From Candidatus Altiarchaeales archaeon (lineage in GTDB: Archaea; Altiarchaeota; Altiarchaeia; IMC4; SCGC-AAA252-I15), in contig WJJK01000045.1 of assembly GCA_014729705.1 (NCBI GenBank), forward strand, positions 1 through 49,586: a stretch of 49,586 nt of DNA. Reading direction: 5' to 3'. The notes below the pieces were generated by a model. The model was not told the origin of the DNA. It did no database searches and worked only from the letters and a program-made list of their open reading frames with translations. The translations under genes and the position numbers were made by a program. Positions within the stretch are counted from its first letter, which is position 1, and every line of letters starts with the position of its first letter. Below are positions 3,156-38,489 of the stretch, piece by piece.

Positions 3156-3495
3156 TCAGATTTTCAACTTTGTTAGGGGCGCCATTAGAGGCGCTTACGG
3201 ACAAGAAGAAATAAGAGGAAAGAGGATTTTGCTCCGGGGAATGAATACTCTGGGTCAGCAAATCCTAACGATGTTTTGTACAGATGAAGTGAGACTCTTC
3301 TTCACGGAGAAAAGTTTGGTCAACTATACGCGGGCGCACATGGTTTGCCCACAAGTTAGAACTTACACCAGACAAAAGATAGACATAACCATAGATTTGG
3401 AGGAGGGTTTTATTAGTGTTAAAGGCAAATCTTTTTCTATTGACAAAATAGGAGAAGATGCCTACAACCAGGGGATACACGAATACTATTTGTAG
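3100..3495 (+). CDS. hypothetical protein; start uncertain (TTG 3100 or ATG 3133)
   Basis: ORF overlapping the HNH 3' end. No motif recognised. Confidence 0.4.
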   Translation: MIWLIGTQSSRMTTTTSANQIFNFVRGAIRGAYGQEEIRGKRILLRGMNTLGQQILTMFCTDEVRLFFTEKSLVNYTRAHMVCPQVRTYTRQKIDITIDLEEGFISVKGKSFSIDKIGEDAYNQGIHEYYL

Positions 3496-3518
3496 AAGCG
3501 GGGAGACGGGGAGGATGA

Positions 3519-3794
3519 TTGTCATTTCTCGATCCCGTCAACCAGTTACAAATGCGAGCGGAGTTTATCCAGGGTATTATGGAGGTAGCCCGACTTTGCA
3601 ACTGGCCGGAAAAACAAGCGGAGGAACTCAGATCTCTTCTATTGGAAGAACTGGCTTCCATAGACAACTTTATGTATGAAGTTTACGAAAGCACCGAACA
3701 GCGTGACGTGGCTTTTGCTGTGTACGAAGCGCAAATGGAAAACCTTAGACGCTGGCTTAGCTTGATGTTGGGCATCAAGATTAAGTATGTTTAG
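3519..3794 (+). CDS. hypothetical helical protein
   Basis: TTG start with GGAGG 4 nt upstream. Its translation looks more protein-like than the overlapping 3458..3679 frame. Confidence 0.45.
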   Translation: MSFLDPVNQLQMRAEFIQGIMEVARLCNWPEKQAEELRSLLLEELASIDNFMYEVYESTEQRDVAFAVYEAQMENLRRWLSLMLGIKIKYV

Positions 3795-3803
3795 GAGAAA
3801 AAA

Positions 3804-4034
3804 GTGAGAGAAACTATAATAACCTCTATTCTTGTGCTTATAGTAGCTTCAGTTACATTAGCCGGGGGAGGTCCTCCTCCGCAGCAGCAGATGGGACCTC
3901 TTCAACCTAATGTAGTAGTTCAATCAGAGGGAGGAAACTTTGGAGCTTATGTAGGCGCAGCAGCCACTTTAGCTTCAGCCATAATCGGTTATCTTGGCGT
4001 CAGATACGGCAGGAAGAAGAAAAGCAAGGATTAA
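3804..4034 (+). CDS. small two-TM membrane protein (holin-like topology; function unproven)
   Basis: GTG start after AGGAGA. Hydrophobic segments IITSILVLIVASVTLAGG and FGAYVGAAATLASAIIGYLGV are followed by a basic tail RKKKSKD. Confidence 0.55.
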   Translation: MRETIITSILVLIVASVTLAGGGPPPQQQMGPLQPNVVVQSEGGNFGAYVGAAATLASAIIGYLGVRYGRKKKSKD

Positions 4035-4036
4035 AA

Positions 4037-4354
4037 ATGAAGGCAGTATTAGATATTTCTGATTTAGAGGAAATGACCAAAGAGCTTTTGGATCTAACTC
4101 CGGACGGATGGACAAGATCTATTTATTTTGACGTATCTAAGCTTTTAGAAGAAGTAGGAGAAGTAGCTGAAGCCTTAAATAAAAGCAAGTATACAGATGA
4201 GGATGTTGCAGACGAGATTACAGATGTTATAGTATGTTGTTTTGTTATAGCTTTAAAAAGAAAAATAGATCTAAATAGGGCTATGATAAACAAGCAAGAA
4301 AAAAGAGTAAAGAAACTTCTTAAGAGATTTCACGATAAAGAGTGCCCCAAGTAG
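4037..4354 (+). CDS. MazG-like nucleoside triphosphate pyrophosphohydrolase
   Basis: LLEEVGEVAEAL and VADEITDVIV match the EExxE / ExxD metal-binding helices of small phage MazG proteins. Confidence 0.6.
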   Translation: MKAVLDISDLEEMTKELLDLTPDGWTRSIYFDVSKLLEEVGEVAEALNKSKYTDEDVADEITDVIVCCFVIALKRKIDLNRAMINKQEKRVKKLLKRFHDKECPK

Positions 4355-9480: not shown

Positions 9481-9778
9481 TCGTTTCAGAGTAATAGTTA
9501 ATCAGGATAGCAAAGGTGAGATACTTTGCTTCTGTCCTTATGATGAGTACCTCAAGGGTCTTTGTGTTTGTAGGGAAAAGTACGACTGCCCGGAAGCTAT
9601 AATAGAGTTAACAGTCCTTCCTAACTCCCGTCCCTCTGACAAAGTAGTGGCGGCGGTTGAAAAAGGGAAGCGGGAAGTTAAATCCGCAGAACGTGAGATA
9701 AAGCGATCTGCGGATAGGATAAAGCAAGGCGTTAACCGTTTGGAGAGAGTAGCCGGTAAAAACCGATGGAGGATTTAA
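9464..9778 (+). CDS. hypothetical protein
   Basis: 104-aa ORF with Cys-rich N-terminal and basic C-terminal halves. Confidence 0.45.
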   Translation: MPMESNRFRVIVNQDSKGEILCFCPYDEYLKGLCVCREKYDCPEAIIELTVLPNSRPSDKVVAAVEKGKREVKSAEREIKRSADRIKQGVNRLERVAGKNRWRI

Positions 9779-9779
9779 G

Positions 9780-10382
9780 ATGTCGGAGATTTTGGGTTTT
9801 GGGTCTACGGCGCAGGTGGGTAAGGACACCGCTGCCAATCATTTAGAGGAAGTTTTTGGAGAAGCGAAGAGAGTGGCTTTTGCGGATAAGTTGAAGCAGG
9901 TAGCCATGCTTCTTTTTGGACTTTCTTATGAACAGTGTTACGGTCCAGTGGAAATCAAAGAGAAAGTGGACCCTCGCTATAACCTAACGCCGCGGGAGAT
10001 ACTTCAGGGTATTGGTGAAAACATGAGAAAGGTTTATGAAGATATCTGGATAGACACTGTTTTCAATACCACCATTCCTGATTTAGAACAGCAGGGTTAT
10101 AGTAAGTTTGTCATTTCGGATGTACGTTATCCTAATGAAGCAAGAAAAATAACAAAAGAAGGTGGCGCTGTAGTTCGTATTGATAGAGAAGGTTCTGGTG
10201 TTTCGGTAGGTAAGGGGCATTCTAGCGAGACAGCCATGGAGGATTACAAAGACTACACCGCTATTTTGAAAAACAACGGGACTCTGGAAGAGTTTTTTGC
10301 CAGCGTTGAGGCCCTAGTGGAGGAGCTCGGATGGCAAAAATTGAAAGAAGAGACGGAACAAGTACAGAAGGCAGAGGCTTAG
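9780..10382 (+). CDS. deoxynucleoside monophosphate kinase-like P-loop protein
   Basis: GFGSTAQVGKDTAA P-loop variant plus ISDVRYPNEA, as in phage dNMP kinases. It sits next to thyA and DHFR. Confidence 0.65.
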   Translation: MSEILGFGSTAQVGKDTAANHLEEVFGEAKRVAFADKLKQVAMLLFGLSYEQCYGPVEIKEKVDPRYNLTPREILQGIGENMRKVYEDIWIDTVFNTTIPDLEQQGYSKFVISDVRYPNEARKITKEGGAVVRIDREGSGVSVGKGHSSETAMEDYKDYTAILKNNGTLEEFFASVEALVEELGWQKLKEETEQVQKAEA

Positions 10383-12884: not shown

Positions 12885-13553
12885 ATGAGCAAAAAAACGG
12901 AAATCAACGAAAAAGATTTAGACAATAAGGCGGAAAAGGACCCTAAGTCCAAGCGCTGGAATAATGCCAATAGTCGTAAGAACCTGAAGCAGTACCAAAA
13001 AGATAAGAAAGAAGAGCCTGTAGTTCCCGAGGTTGTCTCTGAAGATGAGGAGGACAACACGCAGGCGCAAGCACTGGTTGTAGGTCGCAAGATAAGTCCT
13101 GATTTAGTAAAGAAACTCATGCCGCAGCGGGGAGTACTTACTGCAGCAGAAAAGAAAAGATTTAATGGTATTGTTATCACGTATTTGGCAGATTTTAAAA
13201 ACGAAGAACCAACAGCCGCAGACGTTGATGACATTTTCGAAATAGCCAAAAGCGACATTATGGAGACGCGCCTTTTGCAGGCGTCAAAAAGCGACCCTCA
13301 AGCTTTGGTTAGTATTTCTCAAGCTATTGAAAAGCTTAATAAGAGAAAGCAGCAGGCTAAAGAAAACCTGTCCAGCCGTCGAGTGGATCGCAAAGGAACG
13401 CGAGCTTCTGCTGACGTGAACATCATCGACCTTGTAGTTCAGTTTGATAGTCTCCGCAAGAATGAACAGAGAGACAAAATCGATGCTCTCATGGCCGAAG
13501 AGGACGAGACGTCGCAGAAGCTGCGGAAAGTCCTGGAAGACGACGGGTACTAA
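12885..13553 (+). CDS. putative small terminase subunit (by position)
   Basis: 222-aa basic/charged protein directly upstream of TerL and TAATG-coupled to it. Confidence 0.4.
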   Translation: MSKKTEINEKDLDNKAEKDPKSKRWNNANSRKNLKQYQKDKKEEPVVPEVVSEDEEDNTQAQALVVGRKISPDLVKKLMPQRGVLTAAEKKRFNGIVITYLADFKNEEPTAADVDDIFEIAKSDIMETRLLQASKSDPQALVSISQAIEKLNKRKQQAKENLSSRRVDRKGTRASADVNIIDLVVQFDSLRKNEQRDKIDALMAEEDETSQKLRKVLEDDGY

Positions 13554-16500
13554 TGCTAAAACAAGACGATCCCGAGTTTCTTTCTGCATCCGCAGAACTA
13601 ATACAATTCTATAGACAATACCCTGAAATAGCCGCAGAAGAACTTTTTGGAACTCCGCAGAAACCTTTTCGGTTATCCAACATCCAGAAAGTAGTCTTGC
13701 GGTCTATGTGGTTTAAGAACTACGTCATGGCTGTTATGTGCCGCGGCGCCGGAAAATGCGTAGGCAAGGATTCTTACATATTCACAGACCGTGGGATCTA
13801 TCGAATAAAGGACTTGATGGCAAAGACATCTGTCCTACAAGATGCTGATTTTTCTATATCTGATGGACAATCTCTGGCACCTGCACAAAAGGTTTACTAT
13901 GATGGTATTCAAACGGTCAATATTTTGGAAACATCATTGGGCTATTCTATAAATGTAACCGATGATCATCCATTACTCGTTATGGGTAGTTCTGGCAAGT
14001 TGGAGTGGAAGAAAGGCTGCGATATTTCAGAGAATGATTATGTGTGTATTTCACGAGGCGACAATGTTTGGTCTAACAAAACTTCTACTGGGCAACTAGC
14101 ATATTACTTAGGACTTTTAGTTGGTGATGGGTGTTTAACTCGACGGAACATTATATCTTTTTCTAGTGAAGATGATGAACTATTGTCTGAATTCTGCAGA
14201 CTTACTAAAGAAATATTTGGCTATGATGCCAAGATTAGTGCCCCGAAAGGTAAATGTCGTGAAGTTAGAATTTATTCTGTAAATATATGTGCGCAACTCT
14301 TAGGGTTAGGTTTAGATTATAGTAAAGCATCTGAAAAAAAGTTCCCCTCTTATTTATTAGATAAGGATAGAGATTCTATAATATCTTTTCTTCAAGGATT
14401 ATTTGATACCGATGGTACAGCAGATAGCAGAAGATTGGCAGTTTCTTTTTGTACATCTAGTGCCGAGCTGGCTGAGATTGTTCATTTATGTTTATTGAAT
14501 TTAGGTATAGTTTCCAGAAAAAGATTTAAGAAGAATAGTAAATCTGGTGCTTACATTATTGATTTATCAGGTAAGGATGCTGTCTTATTCAAAGAGATTG
14601 TTGGTTTTAGATTGGAACGTAAACAGAATATTCTCAAAGATAAATGTACGGATGTAAAAATAAACACCAATAAAGATGTTATTCCCCACCAACACGCACG
14701 TTTTTCCAGATTGTTTGCATCAACCTACGGTTTAATACCCAGAGAAAATCGACAACGCCTACATAAATACTCATGCTATTATGATATTTCCTATGAATCT
14801 TTGGACAGAACTTTATCCGATATAAACAAGAATGACGAAGATTTTTCATATTTACAAAAACTTCTAAAGTTAAATTATCGTTTTGATAAAATTGTGAAGA
14901 AGAGTCTTGCTGCGGAGGAAGTTTATGATCTTTGCATGCCGGAAGAAAATCAGCACGCATTTGTTTGTAATGGTTTTATTAACCATAATACTTTCTTATT
15001 AGGAACATTGGCGTGTCTAAAGGCTATGCTTTATCCAGGACACCGTGTTGGCCTTATTGCACCTACTTTCCGTCAGTCCAAGTTGATTTTTGACGAGTGT
15101 AATCGTATTTTTCAAAGGTCTCCTATACTACAGGATGCCTGTGAGAGAAAACCCACACAGCAGTCAGATAACTGCTACATAAGATTTAAATCAGTAGCCG
15201 GACAGCCTGGTTCTCTGGTTCAAGCTATTCCGTTAGGTGATGGTACCAAGATACGAGGTTCTCGTTTCTTTACCATTGTCTGCGACGAGTTTCCGCACAT
15301 TCCTGAAGAAATCTTCAATATGGTTATTCGTCCTATGGCCGCTACTGTTAGCGATCCCATGGAGAACGTAGAGCGTTTAGAGCAGCAGCGTGTTCTACTC
15401 GAAAAGGGACTTATAACAGAAGAGCAGCTGGAAGAGGAAACAAATGCTAACCAGATAATCATTACCTCGTCCGGCTATTTTACGTTCAACCACATGTATA
15501 CTTTGTATTGCGTCTACCGAGATGAGATGCTAAAAGGAAATCTAAAGTATGCTGCTTTCAGGGTTCCCTATACATTACTTCCTCCGGGATTTCTGGATGA
15601 GGATAACGTGGAAGCTGCCAAGAGGGAAATGTCCAGCCTTGAGTTTCGCATGGAATACGAGGCAGCTTTTATTCCGGATACGGATGCTTTCTACAAAGCT
15701 TCTCTTTTGGAGGCTTGTAGTAAGACAAGTTTCTCAACCCAGGTTGTGGGGGAGCCAGGAAAATCTTATTGTTTAGGTATAGACCCTGCTAGAAGTGAGG
15801 ACTCTTTTGCCCTAGTCGTAGTAGAAATCGGGCAGCCTGCTAAGGTAGTTCACGCTCTAGAAATCCACAAACAACCCTTCCCTAAGATGGCACAAACCAT
15901 TGAAGATCTTTGTACTGCTTTTAATGTTCAGCATATCTACATGGACTCCCAAGGAGGAGGTCATGCCATTAAAGACATTTTAGCAGAAAATCCTACCGGC
16001 AATCAATCTGGTCCCATCTTAGACCCCGAGGACGAAGTCCACCAGAGAAAATCAGGACGGCACATTCTAACTATGTGCAATTTTTCTACTGATTTTATTT
16101 CCGAATCTAACTACGCCGCTCTTAGGTTGTTGGAACACCGAGAGCTTCTATTTCCTAATGTTCCTAAGGATACCGAGCCCACTCCTGCGCAGGAAAGATC
16201 TTGGCAGACCATTCAGGATATGAAAACTCAAATGCAGACTATTGAGTTGAGTGAAACCCCTACAGGCAAGCAGCATTTTGATGTGCCCAAGGGAGGAGGT
16301 CACGGAAAGCAGAAGAAGGACTTGTATACAGCATTTATGTTGGCTGCACGTTGCGTCTATGACCTTGTGTGGTCCGAAGGTCTGCCCGATGAGATTCTGC
16401 ATCACGGTGGAGTGATGCAGCCCCGTAACAGAAATAGAAATGACAAAGAAATGGAAGACGCCTTTGGAGGCGAGATTCCTCAAGCCCTAAGAGATAAGAT

Positions 16501-16624
16501 AGAAATAGCTCAGGATCCGGAAGGTTTTAAAAGGAAGATGATTCACCAAGCCTTCCATGGAAGAAAGGTAATAACAAGCAGCGCTGCCTGTTTGACGCCC
16601 AAGCCTAAAAAGAAGGGGAAATAA
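13553..16624 (+). CDS. terL: terminase large subunit precursor containing a 411-aa intein
   Basis: The Walker A motif is split: CRGAGK | intein | TFLLGTLAC. Removing residues 69-479 restores GAGKT. The remaining 612 aa fits TerL in size and position. Confidence 0.85.
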   Translation: MLKQDDPEFLSASAELIQFYRQYPEIAAEELFGTPQKPFRLSNIQKVVLRSMWFKNYVMAVMCRGAGKCVGKDSYIFTDRGIYRIKDLMAKTSVLQDADFSISDGQSLAPAQKVYYDGIQTVNILETSLGYSINVTDDHPLLVMGSSGKLEWKKGCDISENDYVCISRGDNVWSNKTSTGQLAYYLGLLVGDGCLTRRNIISFSSEDDELLSEFCRLTKEIFGYDAKISAPKGKCREVRIYSVNICAQLLGLGLDYSKASEKKFPSYLLDKDRDSIISFLQGLFDTDGTADSRRLAVSFCTSSAELAEIVHLCLLNLGIVSRKRFKKNSKSGAYIIDLSGKDAVLFKEIVGFRLERKQNILKDKCTDVKINTNKDVIPHQHARFSRLFASTYGLIPRENRQRLHKYSCYYDISYESLDRTLSDINKNDEDFSYLQKLLKLNYRFDKIVKKSLAAEEVYDLCMPEENQHAFVCNGFINHNTFLLGTLACLKAMLYPGHRVGLIAPTFRQSKLIFDECNRIFQRSPILQDACERKPTQQSDNCYIRFKSVAGQPGSLVQAIPLGDGTKIRGSRFFTIVCDEFPHIPEEIFNMVIRPMAATVSDPMENVERLEQQRVLLEKGLITEEQLEEETNANQIIITSSGYFTFNHMYTLYCVYRDEMLKGNLKYAAFRVPYTLLPPGFLDEDNVEAAKREMSSLEFRMEYEAAFIPDTDAFYKASLLEACSKTSFSTQVVGEPGKSYCLGIDPARSEDSFALVVVEIGQPAKVVHALEIHKQPFPKMAQTIEDLCTAFNVQHIYMDSQGGGHAIKDILAENPTGNQSGPILDPEDEVHQRKSGRHILTMCNFSTDFISESNYAALRLLEHRELLFPNVPKDTEPTPAQERSWQTIQDMKTQMQTIELSETPTGKQHFDVPKGGGHGKQKKDLYTAFMLAARCVYDLVWSEGLPDEILHHGGVMQPRNRNRNDKEMEDAFGGEIPQALRDKIEIAQDPEGFKRKMIHQAFHGRKVITSSAACLTPKPKKKGK
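13757..14989 (+). mobile_element. LAGLIDADG-type intein in the TerL P-loop
   Basis: Starts at Cys (CVGKDSYIF), has a TDDH block B, LAYYLGLLVGDGCL and FLQGLFDTDGTA dodecapeptides, ends ...NGFINHN and is followed by a +1 Thr. Confidence 0.9.
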
Positions 16625-26165: not shown

Positions 26166-27233
26166 ATGGATAGAACAAAGCTACAAGAGCTCTTCAAGGC
26201 AACTGCGGCTATCGACACTCCTGAGGGTGTTGAAGCATATAAGGCCTTCGCGCAGGCTTTGACTGTACCTATTCTCCAGGAGATTCGCGATGCTTCGATC
26301 ATGCGTCAGCTGTTCGCTGTTGAGCGTCTTGCCCCTGGTGCGCAGGCAGTCTACCCAGTTGCCGATGACTTCGACATCCCGGTATTCGTTCTTCCGGGAC
26401 TCGGATACATCGCGCAGAACTTCGTTGAGGGTGTAGGTGAGGAAGTGTACGTACCTACTTTCTCCATCTCCGTTTCCGCGGACTGGAAGGTAACTTACGC
26501 ACGCGATTCCCGAATCGACATCCCTGAGCGCTCCGCACGAAACGCCGCTCGTGCTATTGCTGACTACGAAGAGGAGTCCGGTTGGCGAGTAATCGTTCCC
26601 GGTGCTACTACTAACTTCGCTGGTCAGGGCCTACTTGGTCCACGCAATGCTCCGATTTATCAGGTACCTACCGGCCAGACCGGTGAGAAGTTCCTCTCCA
26701 AGGAACTCCTAAACCTGATGATGGTTGGTATGAAGAGGGTACGCCGCTCTTTGACCGATCTTTACATTTCCCCTGAGGATGCCGCTGACATTCGTGAGTG
26801 GACTGATACTCAGGTTGATCCTATTACCCGACGCGAGATCTTCACCGCTTCCGGTATGGGACGCATCTGGAACATCAATCTTCACGAGGTATTCCAGCTC
26901 GGTGCTACTGGTCGATACAACATCAACCAGAACGGTGCTCAGTTCGGAGTATTCCAGGTTGATGGCTCTGGTGACTTCAACGACTATACTCCAACCAACG
27001 TTAACACTGTGGATGCTAACGGAAACGTTACTGCCGCAGGTGAGACTCAGGTCTACGGATTTGACCTCTCCGTTAACGACTCTCTGGTTATGCCTGTCCG
27101 CAAGGAGTTCGAGGCTCACGACGATCCTACTCTCCTTCGACAGCAGAAGCAGGGATTCTTCGGTTGGGAAGAGGTTGGTTTCGCCCTACTCGATTCCCGT
27201 ATGGTACAGATGGGTGTTATCGATCGTTCTTAA
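26166..27233 (+). CDS. major capsid protein (HK97-fold expected)
   Basis: 355 aa with a strong AAAGGAGGA SD, lying after the scaffold and decoration genes and followed by a large hairpin. Confidence 0.7.
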   Translation: MDRTKLQELFKATAAIDTPEGVEAYKAFAQALTVPILQEIRDASIMRQLFAVERLAPGAQAVYPVADDFDIPVFVLPGLGYIAQNFVEGVGEEVYVPTFSISVSADWKVTYARDSRIDIPERSARNAARAIADYEEESGWRVIVPGATTNFAGQGLLGPRNAPIYQVPTGQTGEKFLSKELLNLMMVGMKRVRRSLTDLYISPEDAADIREWTDTQVDPITRREIFTASGMGRIWNINLHEVFQLGATGRYNINQNGAQFGVFQVDGSGDFNDYTPTNVNTVDANGNVTAAGETQVYGFDLSVNDSLVMPVRKEFEAHDDPTLLRQQKQGFFGWEEVGFALLDSRMVQMGVIDRS

Positions 27234-34152: not shown

Positions 34153-35109
34153 ATGTCAGTCCTCAAGCCTATCATTGATAGCATTGTCAATGGTACTTTG
34201 ACGATTACTGCAACGTCACCCTCGGCCGTGGGGACGATGTTTGATAAGATTCAGATCTTTAGGGCTACTTCTGTAAATGGTCCCTTCAGTCTTATAGCCA
34301 CTATAGATTTTTCTTCTCCTGCAGCCTACTGTGATTTAACCAGTACTCCTAAACTTTATTACAAAGCTCAGTATTACAATAGTACCACTATGGTTTCCAG
34401 TACGTTTTCTGATGTGGCACAGGAAACTGGTGTATTCTCCGAGTATAGCGTACCGGAAAGCACGGCTACCTATCCGCCAGAGTTGGCTCTTTCTGACAAC
34501 GATAGGGAAATCGTTGAGTCTATAAGGATAACCGTAGGAGATAGCGGTCTGATAGAGCGGGATCTTTACGATTCTTCTGACCCGCAGTCGGCAGCTGCTT
34601 GCGCTGCTAATATAGACCCAGCTGGTTGTACTTGGGAGTTAACAGAATGGAAAGGTTGGCCACAAAAGGTAGTTCTTAATGGGGAAGAGAAGACCAACAT
34701 CAACGACCCTCAGGTACTTGGTTATCGCTACCTTGTTTTTAGTGGTTCTGGGCCGTGTATTACAGGCTCTTTAGACGTTTTCTATAACCACTTCCGCTTC
34801 TCCGATCGTGAGATTTTATTGGCTTACGATCGGGCCAGAAATCTTTTGATTACTTGTGGTTTGCCGGAATCTAAGGTTACGACAGAGATGCGTATAATGC
34901 AGGCTGCCATTCTTCTTCTTGAAGGAGAGATTAGGGAGCTGTCTCAAAATGCGTTCCGCATTGTGGATGGAGATACTACCTATGATAATAGTGCTACCAT
35001 TCGTTCCCGAACTACTGATTTGGAGGACCTCAAGAGAAAGATTGACAGACTGATTGAATGTGCTCGCTATGAAGCGGCGTACGACATCCAAGGTTGTAGG
35101 ATAGACTAA
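34153..35109 (+). CDS. hypothetical virion-module protein
   Basis: 318 aa, with an AAAGGAGGA SD. Confidence 0.5.
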   Translation: MSVLKPIIDSIVNGTLTITATSPSAVGTMFDKIQIFRATSVNGPFSLIATIDFSSPAAYCDLTSTPKLYYKAQYYNSTTMVSSTFSDVAQETGVFSEYSVPESTATYPPELALSDNDREIVESIRITVGDSGLIERDLYDSSDPQSAAACAANIDPAGCTWELTEWKGWPQKVVLNGEEKTNINDPQVLGYRYLVFSGSGPCITGSLDVFYNHFRFSDREILLAYDRARNLLITCGLPESKVTTEMRIMQAAILLLEGEIRELSQNAFRIVDGDTTYDNSATIRSRTTDLEDLKRKIDRLIECARYEAAYDIQGCRID

Positions 35110-36866
35110 TGCCCAAAAAACTGGTCACCAACAAAATGAAGAAGGACTATAAAAGGCTGATGTCTCAGCTTGTTAGAGATCTTTCCCAGGAGCTGGTAAT
35201 AGTTCAGGAAAGTCCTATGTTTGTAGATTGTCCTAACTGTTTTGAAGCAGGAACCCTTATAGAGACACCTTTTGGAATGAAGAAGATAGAAGACTTCCAA
35301 CCAGGGGATTATATTTTGGACGGCAATGCAGAGCCTCGACTTGTGGATAAAGTATTTCATAGACATACTGACGCATCTTTCACGTCCATTTTTACACACG
35401 GTAACAATGTGGGGTTGACAGCCACTTCCAATCACCACTTAATGGTACATGAAAACAGGGGCACAGCCTACCATCCCATTTTAGGTGGGTCGAAAGAAAA
35501 AGAGATAGGTAACATACAAAAAGGCGATATAGTTTCTAAAGCGATCAGAAAACTACCCCAAGAGCCTTTAGAAAAGCTATGGGTTGATTGGAAAACAAAT
35601 ACACATGGACCTAAAAAAGTTTTGCCAGAAATCTTGGAAGTTACCGATGATTTCTTATTTGCTGTGGGTTTGTATTTGTCCGAAGGCGTTACAAGCAAAA
35701 GCCGAATAGTAAGTTACTGTCTTAATGACTTGGAAGAAGAAATAGGTCATAAAGTTTGTGCGTATTGGAAATCGGTTGCAGAATGTAACTACACGATGTG
35801 TACTAGAGGAGGGGGTAGGAATAGGATTTTTGAGATATATAGTTCTTATTTGGCTGATCTATTAGATAGTTGGTGTGGACACGGCGCGCAAAATAAAAAA
35901 ATACCCACCTCCTTGTATTACAGGTTGAATGCCCGTCAAACTTTAGTGTTGTTGTTTGGTTTGTTTGTCGGCGCTGGTCATTATGAAAAACAATATGATA
36001 GTGTGGTATTTAGTACTATTTCTAAATCGTTGGCATATCAAGTTTACAATCTACTTCTATCTTGTGGATTCGGTGCCAGTATACTTTCTCAGCCTAGTAA
36101 GGTGGGATCGGACGGCATTTTTAGACAAGAATCGTTCGTAGTTAGATATTGGACAAATAAAGATAAGGCACAAAGAGGGACAATAAGAACTGAGGATAGA
36201 ATCTATCAGGTAGTAAAATCTGTAGCGCACAGTCATAAATCAGTACCTGTTTGGAATCTAGAGGTTCAAACCGAACACAGTTATATTGCAGATGGCTTTA
36301 GTGTACAGAACTGCATATGGGATTCTGTTAATAAAAAATCCTCTAATGTCTTTGATGGTTCTTTTACGTCCGCAACTACTATTTTTTCTGGTACCAGTGA
36401 GGAGCGGGTTATAAATCCTATATCTTTCACTGTTGGACGTTGTCCTGTTTGTATAGGTGAAGGTCAGATTTTTACCAACAAAGAAATCTGCATTCCTGCT
36501 ATGATAAATTTTTTCTCTGGAACCGGCATGCGCCGTGGTTTATTTATGAGCACTGCTGCAGGTAAGGAAGGGATGAACTTGGTGGTGGTTAAGACTCTCG
36601 CCTGCCACTATGAACTTTTACAGAACAATGAAACTTTTTTTATTCATAACAATGTTAAATGTGTGAAGTTCAAGCCTCCTTTCCTAAGAGGGTTGGGTGG
36701 AGAAGAGACTGTTTGTGAGACTATTCTTCAGACTGCCGACGAAGGACAAAGGACTTCTGGTAAGTTTGGTGGTGGAGACAAGTTAAGTCGAGATGATGAT
36801 CCAAGAAAGAGGATAAGAGGTCCTTCTGATATTCTGGATCAGAGAGGTAAACTGAGAGGTAGGTAA
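35109..36866 (+). CDS. virion-module zinc-knuckle protein precursor containing a 358-aa intein
   Basis: Layout is ...FVDCPN | CFEAGTLIE...GFSVQN | CIWDS.... The 227-aa extein carries CPNC and CPVC pairs. Confidence 0.75.
   Translation: MPKKLVTNKMKKDYKRLMSQLVRDLSQELVIVQESPMFVDCPNCFEAGTLIETPFGMKKIEDFQPGDYILDGNAEPRLVDKVFHRHTDASFTSIFTHGNNVGLTATSNHHLMVHENRGTAYHPILGGSKEKEIGNIQKGDIVSKAIRKLPQEPLEKLWVDWKTNTHGPKKVLPEILEVTDDFLFAVGLYLSEGVTSKSRIVSYCLNDLEEEIGHKVCAYWKSVAECNYTMCTRGGGRNRIFEIYSSYLADLLDSWCGHGAQNKKIPTSLYYRLNARQTLVLLFGLFVGAGHYEKQYDSVVFSTISKSLAYQVYNLLLSCGFGASILSQPSKVGSDGIFRQESFVVRYWTNKDKAQRGTIRTEDRIYQVVKSVAHSHKSVPVWNLEVQTEHSYIADGFSVQNCIWDSVNKKSSNVFDGSFTSATTIFSGTSEERVINPISFTVGRCPVCIGEGQIFTNKEICIPAMINFFSGTGMRRGLFMSTAAGKEGMNLVVVKTLACHYELLQNNETFFIHNNVKCVKFKPPFLRGLGGEETVCETILQTADEGQRTSGKFGGGDKLSRDDDPRKRIRGPSDILDQRGKLRGR
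35238..36311 (+). mobile_element. intein with a (possibly degenerate) LAGLIDADG domain
   Basis: Starts with Cys1 (CFEAGTLI), has a TSNH block B, motifs FLFAVGLYLSEG and LLFGLFVGAGH, ends VWNLEVQTEHSYIADGFSVQN and is followed by a +1 Cys. Confidence 0.8.
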
Positions 36867-37525
36867 TGAGTTTCAAGGTAAACGTAAAGTTAGACGTTCC
36901 TTCTCTTAAGAAAGCCATCGAGAAAAAACAGAAGCTTGTTAGAGATAACATCGTTACCGTGATCCGAACCGAGGCCATCCCCCATCTAATAGATCTTATT
37001 ATGCAAGGGTATGATGATTTAAGCGACAGGGCTGATCAGCTTCCCGAAGACCCTACCAATCCTGCTAACTGGAGAACAGAGTTTCGCAACAAACTTGAGC
37101 GGGACTTTGAACAGAACTTGATTTTCTCTGACAACAGGATTATTGTTCGTTTAGGTGACAAGGAGTTTATGGGCTACGACAGTAGTGGGCGCGCCCCGGA
37201 AGGAAACGAGCCCCTTGTATGGTTAGTTTACTATATAGAAGGTCTCGCTGGAGATTGGGGATTCATTACTCCAGAGCTCTATGAAGAACTTAGAGGTAGA
37301 GGTTCTTACGAGGCGGACTGGGGCCGTTTTGGACAGGGATTTCTCATTAGTCGCCAGCAGTTTGAAGATGAGGGTTGGAGTGATTTGATTTCCTTTGATT
37401 CTATTAGACATCCTTTCTCTGGATTTTCTCCTGTAGACATTTTTACCGAAGCCCTACGGGAGTTTACTTTTAGAAGGTTTGTAGAGAAGGCTATCAAGGC
37501 CGCTGCTGAAGGGAGGAAGCTATGA
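36866..37525 (+). CDS. hypothetical virion-module protein
   Basis: 219 aa, TAATG-coupled. Confidence 0.5.
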   Translation: MSFKVNVKLDVPSLKKAIEKKQKLVRDNIVTVIRTEAIPHLIDLIMQGYDDLSDRADQLPEDPTNPANWRTEFRNKLERDFEQNLIFSDNRIIVRLGDKEFMGYDSSGRAPEGNEPLVWLVYYIEGLAGDWGFITPELYEELRGRGSYEADWGRFGQGFLISRQQFEDEGWSDLISFDSIRHPFSGFSPVDIFTEALREFTFRRFVEKAIKAAAEGRKL

Positions 37526-38364: not shown

Positions 38365-38368
38365 CAAG

Positions 38369-38384
38369 GGGTGCTGCCGCACCC
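38369..38384 (+). terminator. short GC hairpin after gene 37522..38364
   Basis: GGGTGC tgcc GCACCC, with no U-tract. Confidence 0.3.
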
Positions 38385-38489
38385 AGGCACGGTACAGGAC
38401 TTTCCTCCAAAGTTGCCTCACTTTGGTAGGCACCGCACATTTCCCCCAATGTTGCGAAAATCAAAACTCGTAAAGGAGGAAGACCTGAA

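Follow-up and report, generated by a model that had tools for sequence, protein, structure and literature searches.

Does the 585-amino-acid (aa) open reading frame (ORF) at nt 35109-36866 of contig WJJK01000045.1 encode one large virion-module protein or a smaller protein interrupted by an intein and, if the latter, could that intein still splice and spread? The window, i.e., the whole stretch of DNA that we analyzed, is one whole 49.6-kb contig (49,586 nt; C373) of a 2.3-Mb metagenome bin, and the phage it represents is therefore uncultured. We conclude, with a probability of roughly 0.85, that the ORF encodes a genuine, most likely splicing-competent class-1 LAGLIDADG intein interrupting a conserved, 227-aa, zinc-ribbon virion protein that resembles phage neck/stopper proteins. 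A first-pass annotation, made from the sequence of the window, had placed an intein at 35238-36311, inside a CxxC zinc knuckle, and its coordinates and sequences proved exact when compared with the ORF translation and our alignments. The features of the gene are listed below.

35109..36866, + strand: ORF of the 585-aa precursor (ORF translation)
35109..35237, + strand: N-extein, aa 1-43, comprising the N-terminal helix plus first strand and closing with C41-P42-N43 (nt 35229-35237); placed by end-to-end alignment with intein-free homologues
35238..36311, + strand: 358-aa class-1 intein with nested LAGLIDADG homing endonuclease (Pfam, empty site, predicted fold)
35238..35261, + strand: block A with Cys1 (precursor C44), CFEAGTLI; C1 and F2 invariant in 14 alleles
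35415..35444, + strand: block B, LTATSNHHLM, with the TxxH motif (T106, H109); T106 and H109 invariant
35652..35699, + strand: LAGLIDADG motif 1, FLFAVGLYLSEGVTSK, acidic E192 kept; E192 invariant and motif aligned with YYVSEG of PI-PkoII
35949..35990, + strand: LAGLIDADG motif 2, LLFGLFVGAGHYEK, with Ala289 (GCT, nt 35973-35975) in place of the catalytic Asp (allele table, PI-PkoII alignment)
36249..36311, + strand: blocks F and G, VWNLEVQTEHSYIADGFSVQN, with invariant His390, Asn383, penultimate Gln400 and terminal Asn401 (alignment, motif table)
36312..36314, + strand: Cys+1 (precursor C402, mature C44), splice-junction nucleophile and second Cys of CPNC; invariant in carriers
36312..36866, + strand: C-extein, 184 aa plus stop, with the rest of the predicted zinc ribbon and a beta-rich core of neck/stopper-like predicted fold (homologue search, predicted structure)
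36441..36452, + strand: second knuckle, CPVC (mature C87-C90), a site that is empty in the window (alignment)

The insert comprises precursor residues 44-401 (nt 35238-36311; 358 aa, CFEAGTLIE to ADGFSVQN) and is flanked by C41-P42-N43 on one side and Cys402 on the other, with C41 as the Cys-3 residue relative to the intein and CPVC lying 43 residues into the C-extein. A homologue search using the conceptually spliced 227-aa sequence as query (threshold E ≤ 1e-3) returned 141 homologues; the best 120 of these were nearly all 224-231 aa long and aligned at ~100% coverage, with identities of up to 94%. VDCPNCIWDS was uninterrupted in 20/20 aligned intein-free homologues. At the DNA level, the joined flanks of the window aligned without a gap to the intein-free gene P0001, carried by a relative's locus (L002), with both sequences measuring 684 nt and sharing 79% identity; the genes neighboring the precursor were 79-84% identical between the two loci. 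Comparison with intein-free homologues of the 227-aa extein, which the first-pass annotation had proposed as a check, thus bore out the insertion point, with a seamless VDCPN/CIWDS junction (here and below, a slash marks the point of insertion). An intron was ruled out as the type of insert by the continuous reading frame and by an Rfam scan of nt 34500-37000, which gave no match to an intron-like RNA family at E ≤ 0.1. For purposes of annotation, the gene should read as a 227-aa protein plus intein rather than as a 585-aa protein. We also observed a 5-nt direct repeat, AAC/TG (Asn/Cys), at both intein junctions (window 35233-35239 and 36307-36313), and recombination between these repeats could in principle delete the intein precisely at the DNA level.

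The insert is a genuine class-1 intein with a nested, double-motif LAGLIDADG endonuclease. Pfam searches of the precursor detected Hint_2, Intein_splicing, and LAGLIDADG_3, the last above its curated cut-off (24.0 vs. 22.5 bits). Cys1, T106xxH109, His390, Asn401, and Cys+1 (C402) were invariant across the 13 sequences of our precursor alignment (the motif table holds 14 intein alleles), and block B aligned weakly with the TxNH block B of the Prp8 intein. An AlphaFold2 model of the precursor had a predicted local distance difference test (pLDDT) score of ~90 over the intein part, and Foldseek searches with this part returned TliVMA (E = 1.5e-19; template modeling (TM) score of 0.72 on the target), PhoVMA, PI-SceI, PI-PkoII, and PI-PfuI, with the intein matches spanning E = 1e-19 to 1e-11. 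The endonuclease core also matched the free-standing enzymes I-DmoI, I-Tsp061I, and I-SceI, and the double-motif domain aligned in sequence with that of PI-PkoII. Identification of the insert as an intein was therefore upheld by its motifs, its Hint fold, and its absence from intein-free homologues.

The first-pass annotation had singled out the penultimate residue as atypical. The usual His is indeed replaced by Gln (Gln400) in the window copy, but this is nothing special within the family, since the position varies across the 14 alleles (Q in four, N in four, H in two, Y in two, and one each of K and G) and such variation is documented in phage inteins (PMC5050341). Judging from these alleles, the penultimate Gln is a family trait and no lesion of the window copy. 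The penultimate His is often absent from class-1 phage inteins, which nevertheless splice (Kelley et al., 2016; PMC5050341); one phage intein with a penultimate Gly spliced faster than its own Gly-to-His mutant, and the function of the penultimate His can be assumed by a His in block F (PMC5050341). By analogy, the invariant block F His390 could stand in for the penultimate His here. Block F additionally contains an invariant Asn (Asn383), placed by pattern comparison and motif alignment, at a position that is most often Asp (PMC4031507).

A decaying homing endonuclease had also been proposed in the first-pass annotation, on the grounds that the second LAGLIDADG motif contains no acidic residue. 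The latter observation was confirmed, and the proposal itself is supported in part. Motif 2 reads LLFGLFVGAGH in the window, with GAGH as opposed to GDGH; GDG occurs in 12 of 14 alleles, and GAG only in P0121 (codon GCC) and the window (GCT for Ala289). Thus, while both motifs should end in an acidic residue, E192 is kept in motif 1 and there is none in motif 2. In characterized double-motif LAGLIDADG enzymes, the acidic residue of each motif is needed to cut one strand. Since Ala289 aligns opposite the Asp of the PI-PkoII IGDG, one active site would be left without its metal-binding carboxylate, making double-strand cleavage improbable for the window copy. The window endonuclease has thus probably lost the ability to cut both strands and, from its sequence, would be either a nickase or inactive.

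Decay in a broader sense was not borne out, since the domain is full-length, motif 1 Glu is kept, and constraint is not relaxed. All intein alleles measure 356-359 aa. For the window and P0121, the proportions of nonsynonymous (pN) and synonymous (pS) differences were 0.185 and ~0.86 in the endonuclease core and 0.22 and 0.64-0.88 in the splicing domain, with a pN of 0.20 over the whole intein and of 0.01-0.05 over the extein, in a comparison whose synonymous sites are mostly saturated (pS 0.64-0.88). The endonuclease core changes no faster than the splicing domain, and the extein as well as the intein shows strong purifying selection. Nicking activity or recent inactivation would fit these data as well as decay does, and the endonuclease seems otherwise not degenerated.

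Could the window endonuclease still be functional, as a strand-specific nickase or by means of a compensating residue, and the allele still be homing? We regard this as possible, though somewhat doubtful. It would agree with the full-length domain, with a core that is at least as constrained (pN 0.185) as the splicing domain (0.22), and with the retained Glu of motif 1. Moreover, nicking endonucleases can drive phage homing, as exemplified by I-HmuI of SPO1, and the GAGH allele P0121 differs by only 6% from the intein-free P0001 in extein DNA, indicating a very recent gain or loss. However, that difference could equally reflect precise loss or recombination with an intein-free phage, and the measured constraint may predate the D-to-A change. 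The requirement for one acidic residue per strand, together with an Ala exactly opposite the PI-PkoII Asp, also argues against a functional enzyme.

The host had been described as a virion-module protein outside the classic intein targets, with a Cys+1 nucleophile that doubles as the second CPNC Cys, in a knuckle paired with a downstream CPVC, and our results agree on both counts. C41, N43, C44, C87, P88, and C90 were invariant in 20 aligned close homologues, and in a knuckle scan of the 154 family members shorter than 300 aa, CPNC was present in 142 members and CPVC in 145. In a wider alignment (A3), only C87 and C90 were fully invariant, with C44 conserved in at least 90% of sequences. The extein had weak Pfam matches to zinc-ribbon families, and its CPVCxGxG is of the CxxCxGxG type found in DnaJ. 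These features point to a four-Cys zinc ribbon, CPNC...CPVC. An exhaustive search with the C-extein yielded 39 cluster representatives of the extein family at E ≤ 1e-3, mostly of 150-250 aa.

A profile search had been suggested as a means of identifying the structural role of the extein. A profile search of the Protein Data Bank (PDB) gave nothing meaningful, PHROG returned no match, and tblastn against 50,697 deposited phage genomes found no match to the extein; a neck-like role was suggested instead by structural comparison. We built an AlphaFold model on the 94%-identical, intein-free P0001 (pLDDT 81), which consists of an N-terminal helix, a long hairpin region bearing both knuckles, and a beta-rich core. 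Foldseek matches of this model in PDB and BFVD were almost all neck or connector chains (probability up to 1.0), including the T4 portal-neck-tail complex and the necks of Pam3, SaPI1, XM1, and phage 812, under names such as head-to-tail stopper, head-tail joining, neck, and T4-type head completion neck protein. The precursor gene lies downstream of a capsid-like gene (26166..27233) and upstream of tail genes and a giant tape-measure-like ORF, in an order that is conserved in relatives. It belongs to an overlapping operon of 318-, 585-, 219-, and 280-aa genes, in which it begins on the stop codon of the 318-aa gene and ends with a stop that overlaps the beginning of the 219-aa gene. On the strength of the model, we consider it reasonably likely that the extein is a neck or head-to-tail stopper protein.

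Several points weigh against the interpretation that the ORF specifies a splicing-competent intein within a zinc-ribbon, neck-like protein. Two of the three intein matches in Pfam, Hint_2 and Intein_splicing, fell below their curated cut-offs, and the non-canonical assisting residues Gln400 and Asn383 could render splicing slow or conditional. Zinc binding is a prediction from cysteine conservation, and C44 is replaced by Asp in three members of the family; since the intein-free P0101 is one of these, that ligand is not strictly required there. As for the neck role, the extein had no family match in Pfam or PHROG beyond the weak zinc-ribbon-type Pfam matches, and its Foldseek scores were modest (E = 4e-3 to 1e-1 in PDB and 9e-5 to 1e-2 in BFVD, with TM scores of 0.3-0.6). 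Finally, the evidence is computational throughout and concerns an uncultured phage: boundaries, empty site, motifs, predicted fold, distribution, and sequence constraint were observed, whereas splicing, zinc binding, the neck role, and the state of the endonuclease are predictions.

The distribution of the intein family was followed by protein and metagenome searches. Full-length carriers numbered 12 (538-599 aa) with the precursor as query, and the intein alone as query added one and IMG/VR a further three. Thirteen carriers require 11 gains or losses on the 161-row extein tree, and the intein is missing in ~90% of extein family members. P0001 (empty) and P0121 (filled) have exteins that are 94% identical in DNA, and the DNA of the window and P0121 is 79.5% identical over the exteins and 66.5% over the inteins. 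The reverse was seen for P0125 and P0126, where the inteins are 75% and the exteins 65% identical, with synonymous divergence (dS) of ~1.0 for the intein and 1.3-3.3 for the extein. The patchy occurrence on the tree and the discordant divergence of intein and extein identify the intein as a mobile element within this lineage of phages. At the same CPN/C site, a 27%-identical intein is carried by L014, a distant extein homologue, suggesting that this site has long been occupied. In a protein search limited to sequences of 197-626 aa, the intein family was found only in this extein family, and an IMG/VR scan detected, outside this extein family, only distant inteins, e.g., in a C5-methyltransferase-like gene.

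Two carriers, P0125 and P0126, have the intein at the other knuckle, between V89 and C90 (GRCPV/CFE...YN/C(L or V)GEGQ); they come from one sample and fall in different extein clades. These site-2 inteins are 46-51% identical to the site-1 inteins, within the range seen among site-1 inteins themselves. In the intein tree they form a 100/100 clade with a long stem, nested in site-1 diversity, and the move therefore ran from knuckle 1 to knuckle 2. The two knuckle targets of the window, ATTGTCCTAAC/TGCATATGGGA and GTTGTCCTGTT/TGTATAGGTGA, are identical at 15 of the 22 central nt by manual count, and this likeness could permit an ectopic cut. Within the family, knuckle 1 reads CPND (GAT) only in both site-2 hosts and in the intein-free P0101, which may reflect co-conversion with the intein, protection from the site-1 endonuclease, or tuned metal binding in the precursor. 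A test for co-conversion (sliding-window DNA identity, plus lists of nearest neighbors for aa 41-89) was suggestive without being decisive, as this segment is the most conserved of the gene in all pairs. Degenerate DNA patterns run against viral and metagenome contigs identified no further site-2 carriers, and those for CPND gave two matches, both by chance and in unrelated frames. Another natural variant without Cys44 is P0114 (227 aa, intein-free), which has CHNS for CPNC at knuckle 1 and retains CPVC. The transfer between knuckles neatly illustrates how an intein can move from one site to a similar one in the same protein and could serve as a model for the re-targeting of homing endonucleases.

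If splicing follows the canonical class-1 pathway, the 585-aa precursor would be translated and Cys1 would form a thioester through an N-S shift, after which Cys+1 would attack this thioester (trans-thioesterification). Asn401 would then cyclize, probably aided by the invariant block F His and without a penultimate His, and an S-N shift would join the exteins to restore VDCPN-CIWDS. Since splicing restores CPNC, the fourth zinc ligand would reach its final place, and the ribbon would be complete, only after splicing.

A more speculative proposal, which we think unlikely, is that splicing is conditional, with a redox or zinc gate timing the maturation of the neck protein. In the precursor, Cys-3 (C41) and Cys1 themselves read CPNC and, with Cys+1, C87, and C90, could form a disulfide or zinc site that holds the catalytic thiols. 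Maturation of the neck protein would then require reducing conditions, little free zinc, or a correctly assembled zinc site. Cys-3 is invariant in 14/14 carriers at both sites (CPN/C and CPV/C), and Asp at knuckle 1 in both site-2 carriers would alter metal binding in the precursor. A Cys-3/Cys1 disulfide "redox trap" is found naturally in the Pyrococcus abyssi MoaA intein and was introduced by engineering into that of Ssp DnaE (PMC3922620), and zinc or disulfides at catalytic Cys residues inhibit several inteins (PMC3922620; PMC4031507). However, splicing is itself a prediction here, and the CxxC context arises automatically whenever a Cys1 intein precedes the second Cys of a knuckle, conserved sites being favored for selfish reasons. 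Furthermore, the intein is dispensable for function, as ~90% of the family lacks it, and the bacterial cytoplasm is reducing. We are just as skeptical of the wider scenario in which an intein family specialized on CPxC knuckle codons gave rise to a clade that jumped to knuckle 2, in hosts where knuckle 1 has turned into CPND, with zinc- or redox-gated maturation of the neck protein. If true, that maturation would constitute a natural metal- or redox-controlled step of virion assembly, and the intein would be more than a parasite.

It is very improbable that the intein is dead for splicing, leaving a non-functional 585-aa product and a defective or dead-end phage genome. The non-canonical assisting residues (penultimate Gln, block F Asn for Asp) might be read in this way, and the viability of the phage is not established by a contig from a metagenome bin. 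However, the nucleophiles and TxxH are intact without frameshift or stop, strong purifying selection acts on extein and intein alike, and phage inteins without a penultimate His splice well (PMC5050341); moreover, the same non-canonical residues are found in 14 alleles from diverse phages, and it is not credible that every one of these is dead. Finally, the idea that the 358 aa are retained as an integral domain in a longer protein variant, an outcome that the first-pass annotation had allowed for, can be dismissed. The frame is continuous and 12 full-length homologues carry the segment, but it is precisely missing, with seamless junctions, from more than 140 homologues, and the empty-site alignment is gap-free over its 684 nt. 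Moreover, the segment folds in the Hint plus LAGLIDADG manner typical of inteins, is patchy on the extein tree, and splits a four-Cys metal site.

The window contains another intein, as the first-pass annotation had noted, which we located ~21 kb upstream of the knuckle intein, in the large terminase:

13757..14989, + strand: intein in the large terminase (ORF 13553..16624; Pfam Intein_splicing, LAGLIDADG_3, Terminase_6C)

The two are 27% identical over the endonuclease domain, which rules out the knuckle intein as a recent copy of the terminase intein. Elsewhere in the same metagenome bin (G000), contig C336 encodes at 3238-4014 (L011 880-3777) a Hint plus LAGLIDADG intein, 27% identical to the knuckle intein of the window, in a long TPR-repeat protein with an open frame of 1793 aa. 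A 159-kb IMG/VR contig (L015, 1501-2574) carries a 25%-identical intein, CFEAGTLI...VHN/C, in a gene that by eye is a putative C5 cytosine methyltransferase type. On a 256-kb IMG/VR contig (L026, 1501-1572), a large phage contig that shares its JGI sample of origin with the intein-free P0097, an intein-like start, CAEFGTRVSTPSGYKNIEDFKPGD, is followed further on by a LAGLIDADG motif in a 736-aa frame.

Free-standing homing endonuclease genes were observed as well. Close intein-free relatives carry a 281-aa LAGLIDADG_2 gene (L001 7551-8396, L002 7496-8341, and L003 7463-8308) between the 280-aa gene and a large tail gene, where the window has a 125-nt gap (38365-38489); with this gene, the module has a second homing element that is polymorphic for presence or absence. 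The virion module of the locus encoding the site-2 carrier P0125 (L004) includes a GIY-YIG/NUMOD3 endonuclease gene (3371-4180) and a 150-aa LAGLIDADG_3 ORF (9655-10107). Phages of this lineage are rich in homing elements.

Inteins in phage structural proteins are already known in principle, with portal, minor capsid, and tape measure proteins on record (bioRxiv 10.1101/2025.01.02.630785). What is new here is the host family, the position of Cys+1 inside a four-Cys metal site, and the presence of one intein family at both knuckles; a zinc-ribbon, neck/stopper-like virion protein is thereby added to the short list of intein-invaded structural proteins. With cysteines at -3, 1, and +1 in or mimicking a metal site, this intein also offers a natural system for studying conditional protein splicing.

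Relative to phage neck/stopper proteins, the extein shares a beta-rich core fold and a gene position between capsid and tail genes, but it differs in having no sequence-family match and in bearing a four-Cys zinc-ribbon insertion and a basic tail at its C terminus, and with modest Foldseek scores its membership of this group is not established. The intein itself resembles TliVMA/PhoVMA, PI-SceI, PI-PkoII, and PI-PfuI in combining Hint with a double-motif LAGLIDADG domain and in its Cys1, TxxH, terminal Asn, and Cys+1. However, it shares only 12-17% sequence identity with these archaeal and yeast inteins, from which it differs by a penultimate Gln for His, a block F Asn for Asp, a motif 2 that lacks Asp in the window copy, and a host that is a phage structural protein rather than a V-ATPase or polymerase. 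The Cys-3/Cys1 redox-trap inteins of Ssp DnaE and Pyrococcus abyssi MoaA (PMC3922620) have a similar C-x-x-C1 junction; in the window, by contrast, the CxxC belongs to the zinc ribbon of the host, and Cys+1 is also a predicted ligand. Closer parallels exist with the mycobacteriophage and actinobacteriophage inteins (PMC5050341; bioRxiv 10.1101/2025.01.02.630785), which are likewise class-1, LAGLIDADG-bearing, variable at the penultimate residue, and patchy, with discordant intein and extein trees, several sites per protein, and occasional structural hosts. However, the hosts listed for them do not include a zinc-ribbon, neck/stopper-like protein from an uncultured large-phage lineage, and the two sites described here occupy equivalent positions in both knuckles of a single metal site.

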